Part shown: positions 10,548 through 45,600 of the stretch, piece after piece
How the letters are laid out: every line of letters starts with the position of its first letter
Position numbering within the stretch: the first letter of the stretch is position 1
Source: Lytechinus pictus
Lineage: Eukaryota
Direction of reading: 5' to 3'
Assembly (NCBI RefSeq): GCF_037042905.1
Contig: NC_087245.1
Location: 24,058,001-24,122,000 of the forward strand
Length of the DNA: 64,000 bases
Position numbers and translations under genes: made by a program
The notes under the pieces: model-generated
What the model was told of the DNA's origin: nothing
The model's input: the letters and a program-made list of their open reading frames with translations, nothing else
The model's database searches: none

Positions 10548-19006
<8,459 letters not shown>

Positions 19007-19403
19007 TATGGAAGCAAGCAGATGCTTTCTAATACCAATCTGACTAAATCTAAAATGATATAGGAATATAACAACACACGTTTGCCTTAATTGTCTAACG
19101 GTCTATAGCTCACACTCTACGTACGGTATACTTTACCAAATGAGAGAACAATGGGGAACGGATGCTGAAAGTGAGCTAAGATTGGACCTTGGTGTACCGT
19201 TAGCTAGAACGCTAAATTTATGGGACTATACATGCACGTTATTATAATTCAGTCGAGCATGTACAGCAGGTTAGGAATAGGCCTAGTCACAAGAAGGTGA
19301 TTTTTGTACTACACGCTAGGTCGACGAGGATTGTGTAACTTGTGTTACCTCGTTTTGTTCACAGGACCATTTTTGTTTTGTCTCAGAAACGCCTGAACAG
19401 ACA

Positions 19404-19550: not shown

Positions 19551-22202
19551 AGACAGACGACCGATATAAGACTATATATTATCGTTCCCGAATGCGTGAA
19601 TTTGCTTGATCGATTTGATTGGTATGTTATGGTTCCATCGACATGATCGAATACTATTGTAGAATTTAGCCATCAAAAGAACCTTGCTGTCCTGTGAAAT
19701 CACGAGCTTGTTATCGTTAGCAAACGTCATGTTATGCTATGTATGATGTAAGTGAAATGAAAGGACATAAAGCGCCCTTTTAAGTCATGGGATTATCAAT
19801 AAAATATTCTTATGTTTTCAATACAAAGAGTGTCAAGACACATAATGTTACAATTACAAATTATGCCAATAAAGCTTACCAATTATTGATGATTCCACGT
19901 AAACCTTTTGTACTTTATGAGACTATTCAAGTCAACCCTTATACCAACAGGGACACGATCTGGATTCTTCACGCAAAAAAAAACAATCCTTGATATTATT
20001 GAGAGTTGCGTGCTTGAATAGATCTCTTTTGGATCTGATTTGTCCCTTTGTCTGGGATACATCGGTTTGACACGTCAAATGCCTACTGATTGTCACCAAT
20101 CATGCACAGTATCCAGAGTATATCAAACGCCATGTAGACTAATAGTCTATTGGGGAGTGGGAAGAAAATATTTGCAATCCTTTTTCTGTAGCCTATTATA
20201 CAATTGTTAGATCTATTTCAACTGTGGCATATCAGTGAACACTCCTTGTCGCAATCAAGAAGCAGAACGGCAATCAATATTGTAAATCAAAAACTACTTA
20301 CTATATGTCTTAGATTTGGGGACCTACCCAAAGTAGATTTGCAGTTGATTGTAAGTTTCTTATACAACGCCCCATTATTAAAGTCCACATGTTATTAGAA
20401 TATGGATGAGTTCAAATTCATGTCGTTATTATGCAGTTTACGCAACTCCTTCGCAGACGCTTTTTGGATCGTAGATCATTTATTGCCCAAATCTCTTCAT
20501 GATAGAGAAGTTTTTGTCGAAAATCGGTGAATCAGAAGATTAAATACATAATCTATTACATTGTAATAATTTGATGTATTTTTCATTGCCGAAATTAATA
20601 ATAATATTAATAATAATGATAGCTATAATGATAACAATAATAATAATAATAATGAAACTTTAACTTTAAAACTTAAAAAAAAATGTCACGAATGATTGGG
20701 GTATATATTCCAGCTGGACAAACGACATATCATTTGCAATTTTCGTCAGCTCCGAATCTTACGACGACCTGCTGTCCCGGTTCACCAATTTTCGACAAAG
20801 ACCTTTCAGCGTTTCATTGTGATTTGACGGGCATTTTCAATGCATTTAATATGTTCTTGAATCCGTTCCCATTGTAAATGCGAAAACTCGCTATTACCAA
20901 TTACAAAGGGACACCAAAAGTTAGAGAGGGAACTGAATGTCCAGTAATAGAGAGCAATGTTCAACTTGGGAAAACAAAACAATGTCGAATTTGTCCAACG
21001 GTTAAATAATACCACATATGATTTTTGGTTTCTTCTTGTACACATTTGACGACACGCCACACTCCATGCATATTCTACACAATTTATGAATAAATCATTA
21101 AAAAAGAAAAGAAATGGGCAACATTACCTTCTGGTTAAGCTTTTGATTCATGCTGATTATTTAGTGCCTTTTGGTGATGGTTAATATTAGTCACAATAAG
21201 CTTGATGTATTGCATTTCTATAAAGAAAACGAAAAGGGATGTTTACAACATCTCTCAAACCTGATACCACCAAATTGAAAGTTACAGAATCGCTTTCTAT
21301 ATCGAAAAGTGACCCTTTCTTCGCAATTATGCGTAATTTACTATGTGCTCAGTAAAATCTAAATATTTGTAAAGCCGCCAATCATCATCATCTGGACTCC
21401 AAGATATAATTTGAAATTTAATTTCCGTTCCCTACTCAATTTAAGAACGTCGTGGCAAGACTCGATCGCTTGATTAACTTTATCCCGTTTACATTCAGAT
21501 ATGATTAATGACGCGAACATGGCGAATGGATGAACAGCCCGAAAAAAAAAAAAAAATTGTGAAATGCTTAATTGCACCATATTTTCCCCAAAGTTTGTCA
21601 AGGCATACTAATAAATCAATATTAAACCCCCGATTCTTCTAGGTCATCGATCATTTAAAATCAAACGGAGGGCTTCATTCACCCAATAAATCCGCACAGT
21701 AGTTTTGAATATTAGATAACAAATAAAAGTGAAGCATTATCCTTATTAAAATCTGAATCGCAGTTGGTACCAATTAACTTGTTAAAAAGATTGATGGCTG
21801 TCTCCATGAGAGGACGTCTATTCAGAAAAAATTAATTACATATAGGATTACTGGCAGTTCTTACCAGACTGCTTAAATGCACAAGTATGCCAGTAGTAAA
21901 GTGCTTTAGGATCTACTGCCTTAGGTCATCTTTTGGAGGGCTAATACATGCAGTCCACTTACAGATCTTCCTGAAATGTTGACGATGATAAAAAAACTGT
22001 ATTTGAGACATCTCACTGCCAAAACGTAACTGTAACTAATAGATCAATTGAACAACTAAACTGCCTGGTTTTAGGTCGTCAGGGGTGATATTTTCTCTAA
22101 AGTTCATCTTCTTCCTCTATGACTTCCAGATAAAAACCTTTCTGTTAGTTGGCGTGGTTGATTGGTGGGTCTACTCAATTGCATAAAAGCAGTAAACACA
22201 AC

Positions 22203-23252
22203 ATGAATCTAACGCACGAGGCAAACAGCACATCAGTATTTGTCCGAGATGTAGAACCACTAACTATGTTAATCTATGTTGCTGTTCTCGTAACGGAAGT
22301 GGTTCTGAACATCGCCGTTCTGACTGTCATTACCCAACAGACAGAACTCCAGGAATACATGATAATCCTCTATCGAACATTGGCAACATTGGATATGCTT
22401 CTCGGTATCGTCTGGTGTACCTGGTCCTTCGTGTGGTTTTATGCCCAAAGCCTTTGGAACTGTACAGTTGCCAGTAAGGTCTTTCCGTTCCTCCAAAGAT
22501 GTCTTATCCTGAGTGCCATGGCCTGTCTTTGCGGCATCAGCTTTAATCTGTATCTCCTGATCACAAGACCACTTCGCTACCACATCGTTGTCACGAAGCA
22601 ACGATTCTTTCTTGTCCTAGCTTTAACGCTTATTGTTATCATACTGATCTGTTTGGTCTACTTACCAATACCTTACTCGTCATTTTCAGAGATCACCAAT
22701 GCAGTGATCGCCCGTTGCCTGAACCGCAGAGTTGGTATTTTAACAGATCAAACTCACGCAATCGACGCTTTGCTCATCGTTGTTCCAGTATGCATAGCCC
22801 TTGTATTTACCCTAATAATTTACGGGAAACTTCTGGTAATCGTCTACAAGAAAAGACGCGTCGATGTCAACATACGGTTGCGGCGGCAAGCGAGAGCCAT
22901 ATGGGTTCTGCAACGAAAAAACGCGAATGCGGACCATGATAATTTACCTCGTCGTCGTCCAAGTAATAACGCTCTTGAGCTCAGTGGCCAAATGGTAGAA
23001 GAACAAAACGCCGGCTTCTACAAACGATTCAAGGGAATCATCACAGTTCTCCTTCTCTATGGTTCTTTCTGTGCAGTTTGGATTCCGTATATCGTTCACT
23101 TCTCGTTGGACCAGGAGCCAAGCTGGCTTGAGATGTTCCTTGACGTGATAGCATTGAGCAACACTTGGACCCAACCCATGGTGTATCTCCTGACCAACGA
23201 AGAGGCTAGGAAATTGTGTTGTAAATTTCTCAAACGGTACTGCATATTATAG
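22203..23252 (+). CDS. Intronless rhodopsin-class (class A) 7TM GPCR, 349 aa, putative chemoreceptor-type
   Basis: Single long ORF; first ATG at 22203. N-terminal N-glycosylation sites (NLT, NST), seven hydrophobic segments, TM3 end ISFNLYLLITRPLRY, TM6 CAVWIPY, TM7 WTQPMVYLLTNEEAR. Confidence 0.9.
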   Translation: MNLTHEANSTSVFVRDVEPLTMLIYVAVLVTEVVLNIAVLTVITQQTELQEYMIILYRTLATLDMLLGIVWCTWSFVWFYAQSLWNCTVASKVFPFLQRCLILSAMACLCGISFNLYLLITRPLRYHIVVTKQRFFLVLALTLIVIILICLVYLPIPYSSFSEITNAVIARCLNRRVGILTDQTHAIDALLIVVPVCIALVFTLIIYGKLLVIVYKKRRVDVNIRLRRQARAIWVLQRKNANADHDNLPRRRPSNNALELSGQMVEEQNAGFYKRFKGIITVLLLYGSFCAVWIPYIVHFSLDQEPSWLEMFLDVIALSNTWTQPMVYLLTNEEARKLCCKFLKRYCIL

Positions 23253-24536: not shown

Positions 24537-24685
24537 TGGAACCGTATTGGTGTAGCGGTTCTGACTCTCCTCTTGTAATGAGAAGGTCGTGTGTTCGAAT
24601 TCCTCAGCGATTTAGCCTTGGCGTCCTTTCGCAAGGCTTCAATTCACACGTGACACTTTGCCACCCTCTTTCCGGGTGGGTGTTA
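24537..24685 (+). mobile_element. Degenerate tRNA-derived SINE fragment
   Basis: TGGTGTAGCGG A-box-like and GTTCGAATTCC B-box-like motifs followed by a SINE-like body (GCGTCCTTTCGCAAGGC). Confidence 0.5.
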
Positions 24686-26913: not shown

Positions 26914-27614
26914 AATGTGTTGCAAGTAATGTTGCTGTGCTACTCTCTTTCTAGGGATGTAGAAAAGCAAGAAAGTTTTCAACTTTGCACCCCAGACCCA
27001 GCACTTGTAGCATCCTTGTGGGCGCAACCCCCTCTCCTGGTACCAAAATATACCTTTTAGTTCGCATTTGAACCTCTAAGGGGTGACCTTTTTGATTATT
27101 TTGTAAAGGGATCCAAAAAGAGTGCAACATATACGTAGTTAACTGCATCTTTATAGGTGCAAAAACTGAAGAGTACAAATTTGCACCAAAAAGGTTCCCC
27201 CAGTGGTGCATTCTGATGGTTGCAAAATAGCACATTATTTTTTCTATTTTTTTTCTACTGAATTATTGAGTTAATAGTGGCGTAACTGTGAGGTGGTACG
27301 CCACTTTGAGAAATATCTTGGCTATAGAACAAACAACATCTCCTTCTTGAGTGACATGAATGGAACCGCGTTATCTGTAATACAATCATTGGGCGTTTGA
27401 TTTGACCAGGGAAGAGGGAGGTTAACCTCAAACTTCCATGATTTGATTTTGAAAGGTATTGGTCTTTCTTTTATGTAAAAAAAATCACCCCTCGATGTCA
27501 GTCATTGCCGATGTTCACGTTCTGCTTTTCTTGGCATACTAACATCCGATCACCTTGATGTATTTGCTGTATAACGATCAATGTTGGCAGTAGGGCGTAG
27601 TGAGGAAGTGCGAA

Positions 27615-28649
27615 ATGGCGAAAGGACCCACTCCAAACAGCACATTGCTGGCAGTCAGAGAAATAGATTCCGAAGTAGCAGTCATCTACGTTTTTATCAT
27701 CGTAATGAGTATTTTGTTAAACACAGCAGTTCTCGTGGTTATTCAGCAACAGAAAAGCCTGAACGAATACATGCAAATCCTATACAAAACACTGGCAATT
27801 GTTAATCTGATTCTAGGGATTGTATGGTCTTCTTGGTCTCTCATCTGGTTCTGTTTCAAGACCGAAGAAAACTGCTGCATCACCAACAAGATATTTCCTT
27901 TCTTCCATCGAACCCTTGTCCTATCGGTCATGGCTTGTATCTGTGGAATCACCTTCAATCTATATCTCCTGGTCTCGAGGCCATTGAGGTACCATAGCTT
28001 GGTGACAAGATCAAAATTCGCTATCGTCTTCGTGACAATAATGATAGCTATATTACTGGTGGGGAGTACTTATATACCTTTACCAGTTCGACCATTTTCA
28101 TTGATATCAGGTGTCTTATTGAAGCATTGTCTGGATGACGGTCTAGGTATAAGTAACGATCAAGGATCATCTATCGAAGGCTTAATACTCTTACTTCCCA
28201 TCTCCCTCGCTCTATCATTCACTTTAGGGATTTACATATATCTCCTAGCGATTGCCTGTAAGAAGAAGACGGTCGGAGTCAACTTAAAATTAGTCAATCT
28301 TCGCCAGAATGCGGTAGATGATGGCACTGATCATTCACCAACCGATCCACAAAATCAAAACGATCAGAGAAGAGATATGGAGCGACAAAGTCAGGAAGGG
28401 TTCTACAAACGGTTCAAGGGTGTGCTGACAGTTCTCCTCTTATGGGGTTCTTCTTGTATCCTTTGGATATCGTACATCCTCCAGTTTTCCCTTAATAAAA
28501 CACCACCCTGGATAAAGGTGCTTCTTGATGTTGTGGCCGTGAGTAGTACCTGGATTCAACCTATCTTGTATTTACTTACCAATGAGGAAGCAAGAGGACT
28601 GTGTCTGAGATCTATTCAGCGAAATGGAAAGGTTACTAGAAAACACTAA
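27615..28649 (+). CDS. Intronless rhodopsin-class 7TM GPCR, 344 aa, paralog of the 22203-23252 gene
   Basis: First ATG at 27615. Shares with GPCR1 FNLYLL..RPLRYH, GFYKRFKG..TVLLL.GS and W.QP..YLLTNEEAR; seven hydrophobic segments. Confidence 0.9.
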   Translation: MAKGPTPNSTLLAVREIDSEVAVIYVFIIVMSILLNTAVLVVIQQQKSLNEYMQILYKTLAIVNLILGIVWSSWSLIWFCFKTEENCCITNKIFPFFHRTLVLSVMACICGITFNLYLLVSRPLRYHSLVTRSKFAIVFVTIMIAILLVGSTYIPLPVRPFSLISGVLLKHCLDDGLGISNDQGSSIEGLILLLPISLALSFTLGIYIYLLAIACKKKTVGVNLKLVNLRQNAVDDGTDHSPTDPQNQNDQRRDMERQSQEGFYKRFKGVLTVLLLWGSSCILWISYILQFSLNKTPPWIKVLLDVVAVSSTWIQPILYLLTNEEARGLCLRSIQRNGKVTRKH

Positions 28650-42600: not shown

Positions 42601-45600
42601 TTAATGAGATAGCAATCGGTAATGCAGTAACGATAATCAATATCGGAAAATGACATAAATAATAATAATGATTACCTCCAGTAACGCTGAAAGTAGAAAC
42701 AAAACCAAGGTATATGTCCATTTGTTTTCACCATTCGTTTTAAGGTCATATACGTCACTAATAAGCCACTGCAAAGAAATGTGCATCGTTAAAACAAACT
42801 CAAATGTTATTTTTATGAAGACAATAAAGTTATGCCATCGACGGTCTATCAAGTCATTTTAGAGTCATATCGAATAAATGAAATGTAAAATGTATAAATT
42901 TGAGACGAATATCACACATCTTATGTTAATATGATGTTGTTTGCATTTTGTTCTCGCTTAGCATATGCAGATTCCAACACAGGGTTGGCACAACTCAGAA
43001 TAACCAAGGTTATCAAATCATATCATTATACAAGTTCAATGTTGTTTTTTTAATCCAAACCAGGTATTTTTTTCATATAAATGAATGTATACATCGTATT
43101 TAATTCAATCATTTTCCCCAACATTAAATATTTTCTGCAATATTAGGCCTACGTATATATGGTATAGAAAATGCTTAAATTTGACCCTGATTTAGATACA
43201 AATCTGATGATATTTTCCTCAAAGTTCTGCTTAAAGTAACGTCTTCTGTTATTTTTTTTTATTATTCTTAAATTTTCTTGAAAAATATGTTGACTGCTAA
43301 TAAACATTTTATCATGTTGATAGAAGACTACAACTCTATCTAAATAGTCTCAAAAGGTTTGCCATGTAGCCACTGTTGTATTTTAACTGAAGTGCATAAT
43401 ATATTTTTAAATAAATGTCAGGATTTAACTATTGTCACGCCGTTATTTTCCTACTTTCACCAGCTTCACATATTCATCCAATGATGTTCTCACCTTAAGA
43501 AAAAGAAACTATCGACAGCTAGATAAGCATTAACGACAACCTGGAATCCAAAATGGGTTAGCATTTCCAGAGCGAAGGGAGCGTTTGCTAAAAACAATTA
43601 GACGAGGGATAAAAATCGGTAAATCATTTTTCAAAATTTCACTAATTTTCATTTTGCTTAACAGCGATAAATTACATGTTCTTTAAATAATCCACAAGCA
43701 GAATAAACCAATTCATTCCTTCCATTTTCATTTTGCTTATCTGTAGCAGTGGCGTAGCTCCTGGGGGGCACTGGGGGTTCCTTGTTTTTTCAGGGGGGCA
43801 ACATTTTTTTTCCGGTGTGTGTGTGTTTGTGTCACAAGGGCGGATCCGACTTTCGCCAATAGGGGACGGGGCCCGAAATTATCTTCACCTATATTTTTCC
43901 CGATCAGTCACTTCTTATAGTTTTATTCTTATAAAACAACATAAACATGAAATGATCTCATAAGCCTTATAAAAAGTGCGAGCGCGAGCGATTTGTTTTT
44001 TAACTTTCATGTATTTTGTCCTGAAAATTTAATATTCTGGGCAATGTAATGTGTGATCCTGAACAAGATGCGTATGTAACTACATGATTACTGCGAACGC
44101 CAAGCGCGAGCAGAAATTTTTAATAACTGTTCTAGCATGATCGAAAAGGGACCTGTTAAGGACTGCTTACATTTACCCACTGGGCGTTGTGGCGTGCGCC
44201 TGTAATCCAAGCTATGCGGGGAAGTTACAAATTGATGTAGAGGTTCGAGGTTCGAGCCCTGGTCACGTCTTTCGGATGGTGACGTTAAAGGTCGGTCCCA
44301 GACGTAAATAATCATATCTGATTGATACACGTCTGACAAAACTCAAATACACACACCCACGAAGATGGTATATATTTTAATAATGGGAGCGCGAAGCGCA
44401 AGCAATTTTTTTTTGACATTCCGACCTAAAAAATTGTCATTCTAAGCACTTTTTGTATTCATAAATGGGATAGGTATGTAACTAAACAATTCTTGCGAGC
44501 GCGAAGCGCGAGAGGAAGAAAATTTATATTTTAGACCTAAAAGCGGGACACTCTATTCATATTTTGTAAATCATGAATAGGATATAGTTAATTGTGTATC
44601 GTTAATATAATGCGATCGTGAAGCGTGAGCAGACAATGATAATTTAAGTACATTTTAAATAAAGAACATGCAGGCTATCGCGCGTGTTTTAGATTTAGAC
44701 CTAGAATCTGGACATTCTGAATACATTTTTTTAATGGAACTTTATGGAATACACGAAGACAATAGGAACTTGGCAAATCAAACAATGTGACCACGCAGCG
44801 TGAGCTTAAAATGTTGATATGTAGACCATAAAAAAGACATTTTACAGAGCACTTAAATTTTTAAATGAAAAAAAAATAATGAAAGCTCGATGTCCGAGCT
44901 AAAATGTGTTTTGTATATTGACTTCAAAACTTGCTCCATATCAGCCTATATTGAGCAAGATATGAATCTCATCGAACAGGCAATTCTGGCGCGAAGCGCA
45001 AGCAAAATTTGTATATAGTAACATGAAAGATTTTTTTTTTGCAAGTCTTCCCCTCACATTATTTCATTCACTCGTCTTCCTCCTCTTATTTTCCTCTTCT
45101 TTTTTCTTCTGTCTTTCTCCTTCTTTTCTTTTTTTCTTTTCTTTCTCCCTTTTTTTTTTTGCTCTGTCAATTTTTTTCAGGGGAGGCACCTGGGGGGGGG
45201 GGGGGGGGCACACAAAATCTCAGGGGGGCACGTGCCCCCAGGCCCCCCCCCCCCGTAGCTACGCCACTGATATGTAGTTCCCTATTCTCATTTAGTAAGC
45301 TACTTTTCATTCGATGTAAAAAAAAAACACTATTTGACGACCAGTCTAAATATCACAGCAAATACCTATAAAATGAAAGGTAATATTGAAGGGGCTATGT
45401 CTATGATAAATTCTAGGCAAAATTATCATTATGATGCATCAATAATTTTACCATAGAGTGTATTGCCCATCAGGAAGGAGGGCACATGACCGAGTATTAT
45501 CCACGTCATGCTAAGTACCCGGATGCCATCCAAACACCGAATGGTTGCATTCGTCGTCTTGGTGTTCATCAGATTTTCTAGATTGAGGTTGAAAGCGAAG

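Follow-up and report, generated by a model that had tools for sequence, protein, structure and literature searches.

A young SINE family of a sea urchin with a head from the host's own 7SL RNA and a tail resembling the end of an I-group LINE

Results

The stretch of DNA analysed here, hereafter the window, is 64 kb long. An earlier note on it had supposed an echinoderm host, and this can be narrowed to a sea urchin: a Pfam Bindin match was obtained (E 1.5e-67), and we take bindin of the matched family to be a marker of echinoids. The note had also singled out a unit of about 175 bp, nested in a hAT-like element, as a candidate SINE. Such a unit is indeed present, with a length of 176 nt, and all of the four parts described there (head, B box, core and tail) lie where the note had placed them. 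The features of the locus are as follows.

43739-43746 / 45270-45277: 8-bp target duplication of the host element, 7/8 identical
43747..45269, no strand assigned: host element, non-autonomous and hAT-like, not part of the SINE (terminal inverted repeats, 8-bp target duplication)
44175..44178, + strand: left target duplication of the SINE, ACCC (empty site in other copies of the host element)
44179..44354, + strand: complete SINE copy in its 176-nt form (family size ~1,400-1,670 copies)
44179..44225, + strand: head, corresponding to host 7SL RNA nt 1-47 (L037 identity, Rfam alignment, pairing test)
44183-44192, + strand: A box within the head, nt 5-14 (read from the sequence)
44226..44247, + strand: linker, with no significant match to the 7SL body
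44240-44246, + strand: 7-nt tandem repeat in the linker, absent from 41/75 copies on contig C1
44248..44267, + strand: segment matching tRNA-His(GTG) nt 50-69, T arm and acceptor strand (18/20 identity)
44249-44259, + strand: B box, nt 71-81, inside the tRNA-His segment
44266..44299, + strand: first ~35 nt of a Deu (Nin) domain, SINE nt 88-121 (compared with window 10877-10910 and AmnSINE1)
44299..44346, + strand: LINE-derived tail with a hairpin at 44299-44335, homologous to an I-group LINE 3' end (30/35 identical)
44347..44354, + strand: short (AC)n tail (read from the sequence)
44355..44360, + strand: right target duplication of the SINE (empty-site comparison)
44375..44378, + strand: first run of four T after the unit, predicted pol III terminator (read from the sequence)

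Insertion of the SINE

All 14 of the other copies of the hAT-like element that were examined lacked the SINE and carried its insertion site once, and the SINE is therefore a later insert in the element. The same comparison contradicts the possibility, raised in the earlier note, that the unit is always an integral part of that element. Among nine other copies of the element with both ends in view, eight had a perfect 8-bp duplication. The target duplication that had been proposed for the SINE, ACCCAC, is real in that the empty sites support it, but it measures 4 bp (44175-44178 / 44355-44358) and reaches 6 bp only if the first two bases of the unit are counted as target.

Duplications in the family were examined in 136 copies, which represent independent left flanks from 175 full-length hits after repeats with the same flank and tandem followers had been dropped. 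Duplications of at least 6 bp were found in 26 of them, compared to a mean of 8.0 and a maximum of 14 in 500 shuffles, and duplications of at least 8 bp in 10 (shuffle mean 1.3); 110/136 copies had none of 6 bp or more. The base preceding the insertion was A in 35 of 47 copies on C1, against a background of 33%, which would fit priming at targets that match the (AC)n tail over a few bases. Of 36 tail-only regions, 7 had 5' truncation points that clustered at nt 86-90. Target duplication, 5' truncation and a repeat tail are thus all present as marks of retrotransposition.

Copy number and age of the family

The unit is one copy of a young, dispersed and composite SINE family. When the genome (812 Mb) was searched with it, 1,708 first-look candidates were obtained, 40 of which were scored; the best 45 matches from these had 92-100% identity and lay on 17 contigs, and seven of the best 45, the window's own copy included, were 100% identical. 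Exact genome matches of SINE 20-mers numbered 934 for the head (a count that also takes in 7SL genes), 1,051 for the core and 1,058 for the tail, whereas the reversed control 20-mers gave 0 matches each. This excludes a chance origin of the unit. The overlap of the three 20-mer lists on contig C1 led to an estimate of 1,409-1,669 copies, which is likely too low for old copies. A single-copy sequence, an outcome that the earlier note had allowed for, was looked for and the opposite was seen, namely about 1,400-1,670 dispersed copies with a shared 5' end.

On C1, 91 hits carried an exact head or tail 20-mer and 75 of these were full length. Their median divergence from the majority sequence was 1.8%, with 73/75 within 5%, in a set that leans young and takes in copies carried within larger duplications. 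Subfamilies were marked by indels of 2 nt (32 of the 75 copies) and 7 nt (41 of the 75). The copies were mostly 167-177 nt long, well under 1 kb, and interspersed over many contigs, and a minority were arranged as tandem pairs or triples. At 30 inspected loci the flanks were unrelated, the 5' end was single and the (AC)n tail was found throughout; the length of the (AC)n run ranged from 2 to 28 nt over the 136 copies. The junctions between the SINE parts were identical in every copy inspected.

SINEBase describes a SINE as a repeat shorter than 1 kb, with at least 100 copies and at least 60% identity to a tRNA, 5S or 7SL RNA over at least 60 nt (PMC3531059). The length and copy number of the sea urchin SINE fall within this description. 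Its first 60 nt matched the host 7SL gene L037 at 49/65 columns in a forced global alignment, in which the real homology stops near nt 47.

The head and the 5' Alu domain of 7SL RNA

The head of the SINE derives from the host's own 7SL RNA, and only from its 5' Alu domain, nt 1-47. The Rfam Metazoa_SRP model matched 44179-44236 with an E of 1.3e-5 and a score below gathering, and at gathering scores there was no Rfam match anywhere in the 64-kb window. Scoring of 25 out of about 6,000 candidates yielded at least seven host 7SL genes above the cut-off of Rfam. SINE nt 1-31 were identical to one of them, L037, at 31/31 positions from the first base of the gene, and the homology extended to about nt 47 (42/49 columns over nt 1-47); SINE nt 1-36 matched five other host 7SL genes at 34/36. 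The 7SL origin of the head, as proposed in the earlier note, is borne out by this identity, and the opposite outcome of a head closer to a tRNA than to the host 7SL did not occur. Because the donor was the host's own 7SL, the origin of the head is independent of Alu and of the hagfish element, which supports the note's proposal of an independent 7SL-headed SINE. Alignment of the SINE to the host 7SL genes gave no match to 7SL beyond about nt 47, its 3' segment included. The description of the unit as Alu-like thus holds for the 5' Alu domain, but the unit has neither the 7SL 3' segment nor the internal deletion of the Alu type.

In the Rfam model, the helix closing the 5' Alu domain ends at nt 47. 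Of 17 base pairs tested in the head, 16 can form, including all four loop-loop pairs. Pair 31:41 cannot form in the main family, and helix 4 is short of one pair; at pair 3:45 L037 and the SINE are in the same compensatory state. The U-turn positions and the two loops that are paired in SRP RNA are also found in the head; these positions and loop triplets are the ones named for BC200 and 7SL in the available text of PMC12265939.

According to the accessible parts of a study in HeLa cells, a 46-nt 5' Alu domain is able to bind SRP9/14 and reaches about 86% of the retrotransposition of Alu, whose 3' part is required only as carrier of the B box (Moldovan et al., PMC11760393). We lean slightly towards SRP9/14 binding, predicted here from the folding of the head, as the reason why the head was kept. 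A search of the host gave one weak exon match for SRP14 (30.6 bits) and no match for SRP9, the latter not being evidence of absence.

It is also possible, though somewhat improbable, that the 7SL head was only a donor of the A box, without SRP9/14 binding, and that its end at nt 47 was a chance template-switch point. The SINE has its own LINE-recognition hairpin, and hence the ribosome trick would be unneeded; helix 4 is weakened, and the A box falls inside the conserved stretch. However, nt 16-30, which lie outside the A box, are the same in two lineages that differ at 9/25 linker columns (one pair of lineages), and the boundary of the head is that of the experimentally defined minimal domain, as far as the text of PMC11760393 is available. 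The two lineages are the majority and that of L121, which was also recovered through its tail. In this single pair, they differ at 1/27 columns in nt 4-30, at 7/18 in nt 70-87, at 1/35 in the core and at 4/47 in the tail, and the one change in the head falls on position 4 of the U-turn triad. The persistence of such a minimal head provides a natural test between SRP9/14 binding and promoter supply as the reason for 7SL heads.

The B box and tRNA-His

The pol III B box that had been noted about 70 nt from the start is present (44249-44259), but its source is tRNA-His (18/20) and not 7SL. Judged from its sequence, the B-box arm of the SINE is that of tRNA-His: SINE nt 70-89 matched tRNA-His nt 50-69 with a score of 30, above all 2,000 shuffles, and copies of the L039 type matched at 20/20 with a score of 40. 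Five other tRNA types reached 11-12/20, in a comparison that comprised tRNA-His and these five and in which the T loop is common to all tRNAs. The His-identical variant, with 22 exact genome matches, may be a reversion. When the genome was searched, with masking, for the B-box arm in the absence of the upstream SINE bases, 68 places were found, including clusters on contigs C11, C12 and C20 that were identified as tRNA-His(GTG) by ARAGORN.

None of the seven host 7SL genes (0/7) has an internal B box. In six of the seven a B box lies 19-43 nt past the end of the gene, in a tRNA-like arm with otherwise diverged flanks; no report of a downstream B box of 7SL genes was found in the literature searched, mostly papers outside subscription. 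Because these genes are devoid of an internal B box and 6/7 have one past the terminator, a plain or centrally deleted 7SL copy would likely be silent. We infer that the downstream box drives the host 7SL genes. If so, the silence of a central-deletion copy would explain the borrowed tRNA arm, and a tRNA B box would be the way to build a 7SL SINE in the sea urchin lineage.

The downstream box opens another route, in which a deletion in a 7SL gene joined its 5' end to this box without any tRNA donor. The tRNA-like arm around the box agrees with such an event, as do three 7SL genes on C10 with a SINE copy ending about 35 nt upstream and a weak match of nt 48-90 to the 7SL flank (score 18, p 0.018). 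We nevertheless consider it very unlikely, as tRNA-His scores 30 (40 in the L039 type) and accounts for the bases 3' of the B box, and as the downstream B box is missing from L037, to which the head is closest. The 7SL 3' flank, with the score just given, and the 7SL body (score 14, p 0.54) were both rejected as sources of the B box when set against the tRNA-His score.

The Deu core and the search for a parent

The core was said to match that of a tRNA-headed SINE in the same window, and this proved correct: 44266-44299 and window 10877-10910 agree at 26/35 columns with a local score of 26, and the best of 2,000 shuffles reached 23. The core also matched, at 29/38 columns counted by eye, the beginning of the Deu domain of AmnSINE1 as shown in the PMC7245038 supplement. 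In the alignment of that supplement the Deu domain spans 130-140 nt, and only its first quarter is found in the SINE. The Deu-like domain of the earlier note is therefore genuine in its homologous start but limited to the first ~35 of the 130-140 nt; the full Deu/Nin central domain is absent.

The note had further suggested a head swap onto a DeuSINE body. Such a swap is plausible. A tRNA-headed parent was not found, however, and the DeuSINE at window 10720 differs from the 7SL-headed SINE in both head and tail. The search for such a parent covered 36 tail-only regions, 30 loci of the old type, core-only loci and the 68 places of the masked B-box search, which catches a His-headed parent only if its 19-mer is perfect. 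Neither was one found among 30 loci of the His-like variant, 28 of which had a 7SL head, one a partial head and one was a headless fragment.

The tail and its LINE partner

As had been reported, a short (AC)n tail is present (44347-44354), and comparison of the sequence before it with LINE ends, a check proposed in the note, revealed a matching hairpin of an I-group LINE. A masked genome search with the tail but without the core found 32 places, of which 30 were inspected, and each of these proved to be a piece of the SINE or an end of the I-group family. Nine of the 30 had a related end with (AAC)n, which occurred 229 times within three mismatches. When traced upstream, this end led to a LINE with endonuclease, RT, RNase H and a CCHC motif and with variable 5' truncation. 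The order endonuclease-RT-RNase H is that of I-group LINEs. The order endonuclease-RT-RNase H-CCHC, together with an ORF1 zinc knuckle, would place the partner LINE in the I group.

The SINE tail (nt 122-168) and the LINE 3' end share 30/35 bases. The five differences consist of two compensatory pairs and one wobble, and the pairing of the hairpin is kept (z of -5.6 in the SINE and -3.8 in the LINE). One copy of the partner family has an open frame of 1,125 aa. A sister family (62%), whose tail match is weaker, has copies that are 99% alike, with frames of 1,152 and 1,239 aa. The tail scores of other I-group families (43-46% and lower) were at noise level in the 1,500 bases inspected.

Four sites in host repeats were occupied at identical positions by SINE copies and by ends of both LINE families, and the repeats sharing one site may descend from a single insertion:

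Site 1: L071 with L193/L214/L220/L226/L227
Site 2: L097 with L224
Site 3: L139/L299/L405/L070 with L221 and L211
Site 4: L050/L192 with L304

SINE and LINE were also joined directly at four loci, as LINE-SINE in L146 and L298 and as SINE-LINE end in L191 and L356. There is no clear target duplication around L298 or L356, and these two junctions may therefore represent two events. The SINE-LINE junctions and the tandem SINE pairs and triple suggest end-to-end template jumps by one enzyme. It is thus very probable, from the shared tail and sites, that the SINE is mobilised by these I-group LINEs. The SINE ends in (AC)n and both LINE families in (AAC)n, so that the exact partner may be another family.

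Movement by a CR1, L2 or RTE element, with the I-group likeness as an old relic, would agree with the different tail microsatellites of SINE and LINE and with the pairing of S. purpuratus SINEs with CR1/L2 described in the available part of PMC3747384. This has little probability, however, given that all inspected tail places were SINE pieces or I-group ends and that insertion sites and junctions are shared with the latter.

Discussion

In what we consider the likely reading, the sea urchin SINE, a composite of the 5' Alu domain of 7SL, a B-box arm of tRNA-His, the start of a Deu domain and an I-group hairpin, is predicted to be targeted to ribosomes as Alu is. Its A box (nt 5-14) and B box (nt 71-81) form an internal promoter, and the unit contains no T run longer than three; in all likelihood, to judge from these elements, it is transcribed by pol III. 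A search of sequencing runs gave matches under three organism codes and weak rows in RNA sets labelled sea urchin or echinoderm metagenome, of fewer than 5 sampled words each, and these are not counted as evidence of transcription. From the parts, donors and insertion marks observed, the transcription, binding and order of assembly can be reconstructed conditionally. At its birth, a template switch probably, though with a good deal of reserve, put 7SL nt 1-47 onto a tRNA-His/Deu SINE that is now lost or too diverged to be recognised. Pol III would start at nt 1 by means of the 7SL A box and the tRNA-His B box, and transcription would run to the first flanking T run, 44375-44378 in the window copy. 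The head RNA would fold as the Alu 5' domain, bind SRP9/14 and bring the SINE RNA to ribosomes, and an I-group ORF2 would take up the tail hairpin and prime at sites ending in A/CA.

Template jumps are evident in the tandem copies and SINE-LINE junctions, and the copies might be seen as chimeras that each arose once, by retrocopying of 7SL RNA together with another element, as U6-L1 chimeras do. This is highly improbable and in effect refuted by the fixed junctions in all inspected copies and the shared subfamilies, and both promoter boxes are internal. A remnant of a tRNA, a chance match and contamination by human Alu are refuted as sources of the head. Although 7SL nt 6-15 and tRNA-His nt 29-38 have the same sequence, the head agrees at 31/31 with a host 7SL gene from the first base, and the copies are embedded in host repeats having empty-site twins.

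In the available parts of PMC7245038, PMC10886601 and PMC13023118 (2020, 2024 and 2026), 7SL-derived SINEs are given for a few mammals and hagfish only, and the 2020-2026 papers, to the same extent, state that all known ones keep the whole Alu domain through a nearly identical central deletion. The earlier note had named mainly Euarchontoglires and hagfish, to which the shrew-mole Urop has to be added according to the accessible text of PMC13023118. No report of an invertebrate 7SL-derived SINE was found in the literature searched, mostly outside subscription papers and Repbase Reports. The sea urchin SINE breaks two of the stated rules, with an invertebrate host and without a 7SL 3' segment, and its head is just the stretch that was found sufficient for Alu jumping in the part of PMC11760393 available. 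We propose tentatively, and not quite with even confidence, that it is the first 7SL SINE outside vertebrates and represents a third construction route. In this route a natural 46-nt minimal domain would have joined a tRNA-His B box because the 7SL B box sits outside the transcript, SRP9/14 would capture an I-group enzyme, and the ribosome trick of Alu would be general across LINE clades and 500 million years. This novelty is set against the literature alone, entries of Repbase, Dfam and SINEBase lying outside the comparison. The SINE also tests whether the SRP9/14 route works with a LINE other than L1, and because the family is young and the candidate partners have long open frames, this is directly testable.

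The known systems are compared here as far as the cited texts are available. The hagfish SINE1-1_EBu (Ebu1-1) is likewise an independent, young, 7SL-headed composite, with a similar copy number (2,363), a non-L1 partner and a microsatellite tail, and its proposed origin is a joining of 7SL to an older tRNA SINE (PMC7245038). However, Ebu1-1 has 7SL nt 1-96 and the 3' end (the whole Alu domain with the 7SL B box), a bipartite RTE tail and duplications of about 17 bp (PMC7245038). The sea urchin SINE has nt 1-47 only, takes its B box from tRNA-His, carries part of a Deu domain and an I-group tail, and its duplications are mostly short or lacking.

Alu, B1, Tu and Urop share with the sea urchin SINE the 7SL 5' Alu domain with the A box and a B box about 70 nt in, but they differ in a central deletion of about 183 nt, in keeping the 7SL 3' end and in the use of L1 with poly(A) (PMC13023118). 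The central-deletion architecture of Alu, B1, Urop and Ebu1-1 is not found in the sea urchin SINE; their B box is 7SL nt ~76-86, whereas its own is from tRNA-His, and it has (AC)n and an I-group hairpin instead of the poly(A) tail and L1 partner of Alu, B1 and Urop. It is thus a 7SL-headed SINE in the broad sense, outside the architecture shared by Alu, B1, Urop and the hagfish element, being Alu-like in its head, with binding predicted, and like the tail-recognised SINEs at its end. The nearest architectural parallel is found in tree-shrew Tu II/III, whose leftmost unit is described in the text available as derived from a tRNA or from both 7SL and tRNA (PMC13023118).

SA46, the engineered 46-nt minimal Alu domain, consists of the same 7SL stretch and has no B box of its own (PMC11760393). 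It binds SRP9/14 and supports retrotransposition, compared to a predicted binding in the sea urchin SINE, but it is a laboratory construct with an outside promoter that relies on L1, according to the same available text (PMC11760393). The sea urchin SINE is natural, is supplied with a tRNA B box and has a tail for an I-group LINE.

Toward the 3' end the resemblances are with other SINEs. The DeuSINEs or Nin-DC SINEs (AmnSINE1, SINE2-3_SP and the copy at 10720-11160) also have the ~35-nt Deu start directly after a tRNA piece, but the sea urchin SINE is without the other ~100 nt of the domain and has a 7SL head; the sea urchin DeuSINE SINE2-3_SP is paired with CR1 in the portion of PMC3747384 available. 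The mollusc Meta and V SINEs with Nimb (I-superfamily) tails also have homology to I-group LINE ends, over 35-61 nt, and differ in their tRNA heads and other central domains, as described in the accessible part of PMC11481361.

Candidate promoter elements at the 7SL genes

Six of the seven host 7SL genes (L031-L036) carry a B box 3' of the terminator, 19-43 nt past the gene end, and this box has been preserved although the surrounding flanks have diverged. The remaining gene, L037, which is closest to the head of the 7SL-headed SINE, has no downstream B box, and an internal B box was found in none of the seven. The downstream box is a candidate extragenic promoter, for which yeast U6 provides a parallel; a literature search for a B box downstream of 7SL genes found no earlier report. 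Each of three tandem 7SL genes is preceded by an older copy of the SINE, which ends about 35 nt short of the gene and was duplicated together with it; this copy could supply extra promoter boxes upstream.

G000 (the window's own genome), contig C10, 7.91-7.92 Mb: three tandem 7SL genes with upstream SINE (L300, L301)

Insertion sites and copy counts

Copies of the SINE and ends of the I-group LINE, its inferred partner, were repeatedly found at identical sites in host repeats (L071, L097, L139, L191, L192, L211, L221, L224 and L299). An 11-nt motif lies at most 45 nt upstream of the SINE in 10 of 247 copies, compared to 2 in a control stretch. Together, the recurrent sites and the motif hint at a target preference of the endonuclease. 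Because SINE copies, dimers and LINE ends also travel inside larger repeats that enclose them (L039-L044, L170-L176, L248), the counts of some variants are inflated.

Other elements have hit one spot of the SINE itself, nt 71-84, three or more times (L081, L101, L106, L457), with a short stretch duplicated at those insertions.

Other repeats and features

Nucleotides 6-15 of the 7SL genes are identical to nt 29-38, in the anticodon loop, of tRNA-His (L346). This 10-nt identity lies away from the SINE junction and is therefore probably due to chance. On contig C11, tRNA-His occurs in tandem arrays whose units repeat about every 160 nt (L346, L347), and these include variants in which a His body bears an Arg(GCG) anticodon. 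A second SINE-like repeat (L344, L350) has a tRNA-His-like head and a body unlike that of the 7SL-headed SINE.

The DeuSINE in the window was rejected as direct parent of the 7SL-headed SINE. It is listed here with the other features of the window.

10720-11160: tRNA-headed DeuSINE, longer Deu domain, (CAT)n tail
16006-19102 (-): cathepsin-L-like protease exons
22149-23252 (+): intronless rhodopsin-family GPCR-like frame, confirmed by Pfam
24539-24614 (+): tRNA-Tyr, called by ARAGORN
27594-28649 (+): second intronless rhodopsin-family GPCR-like frame
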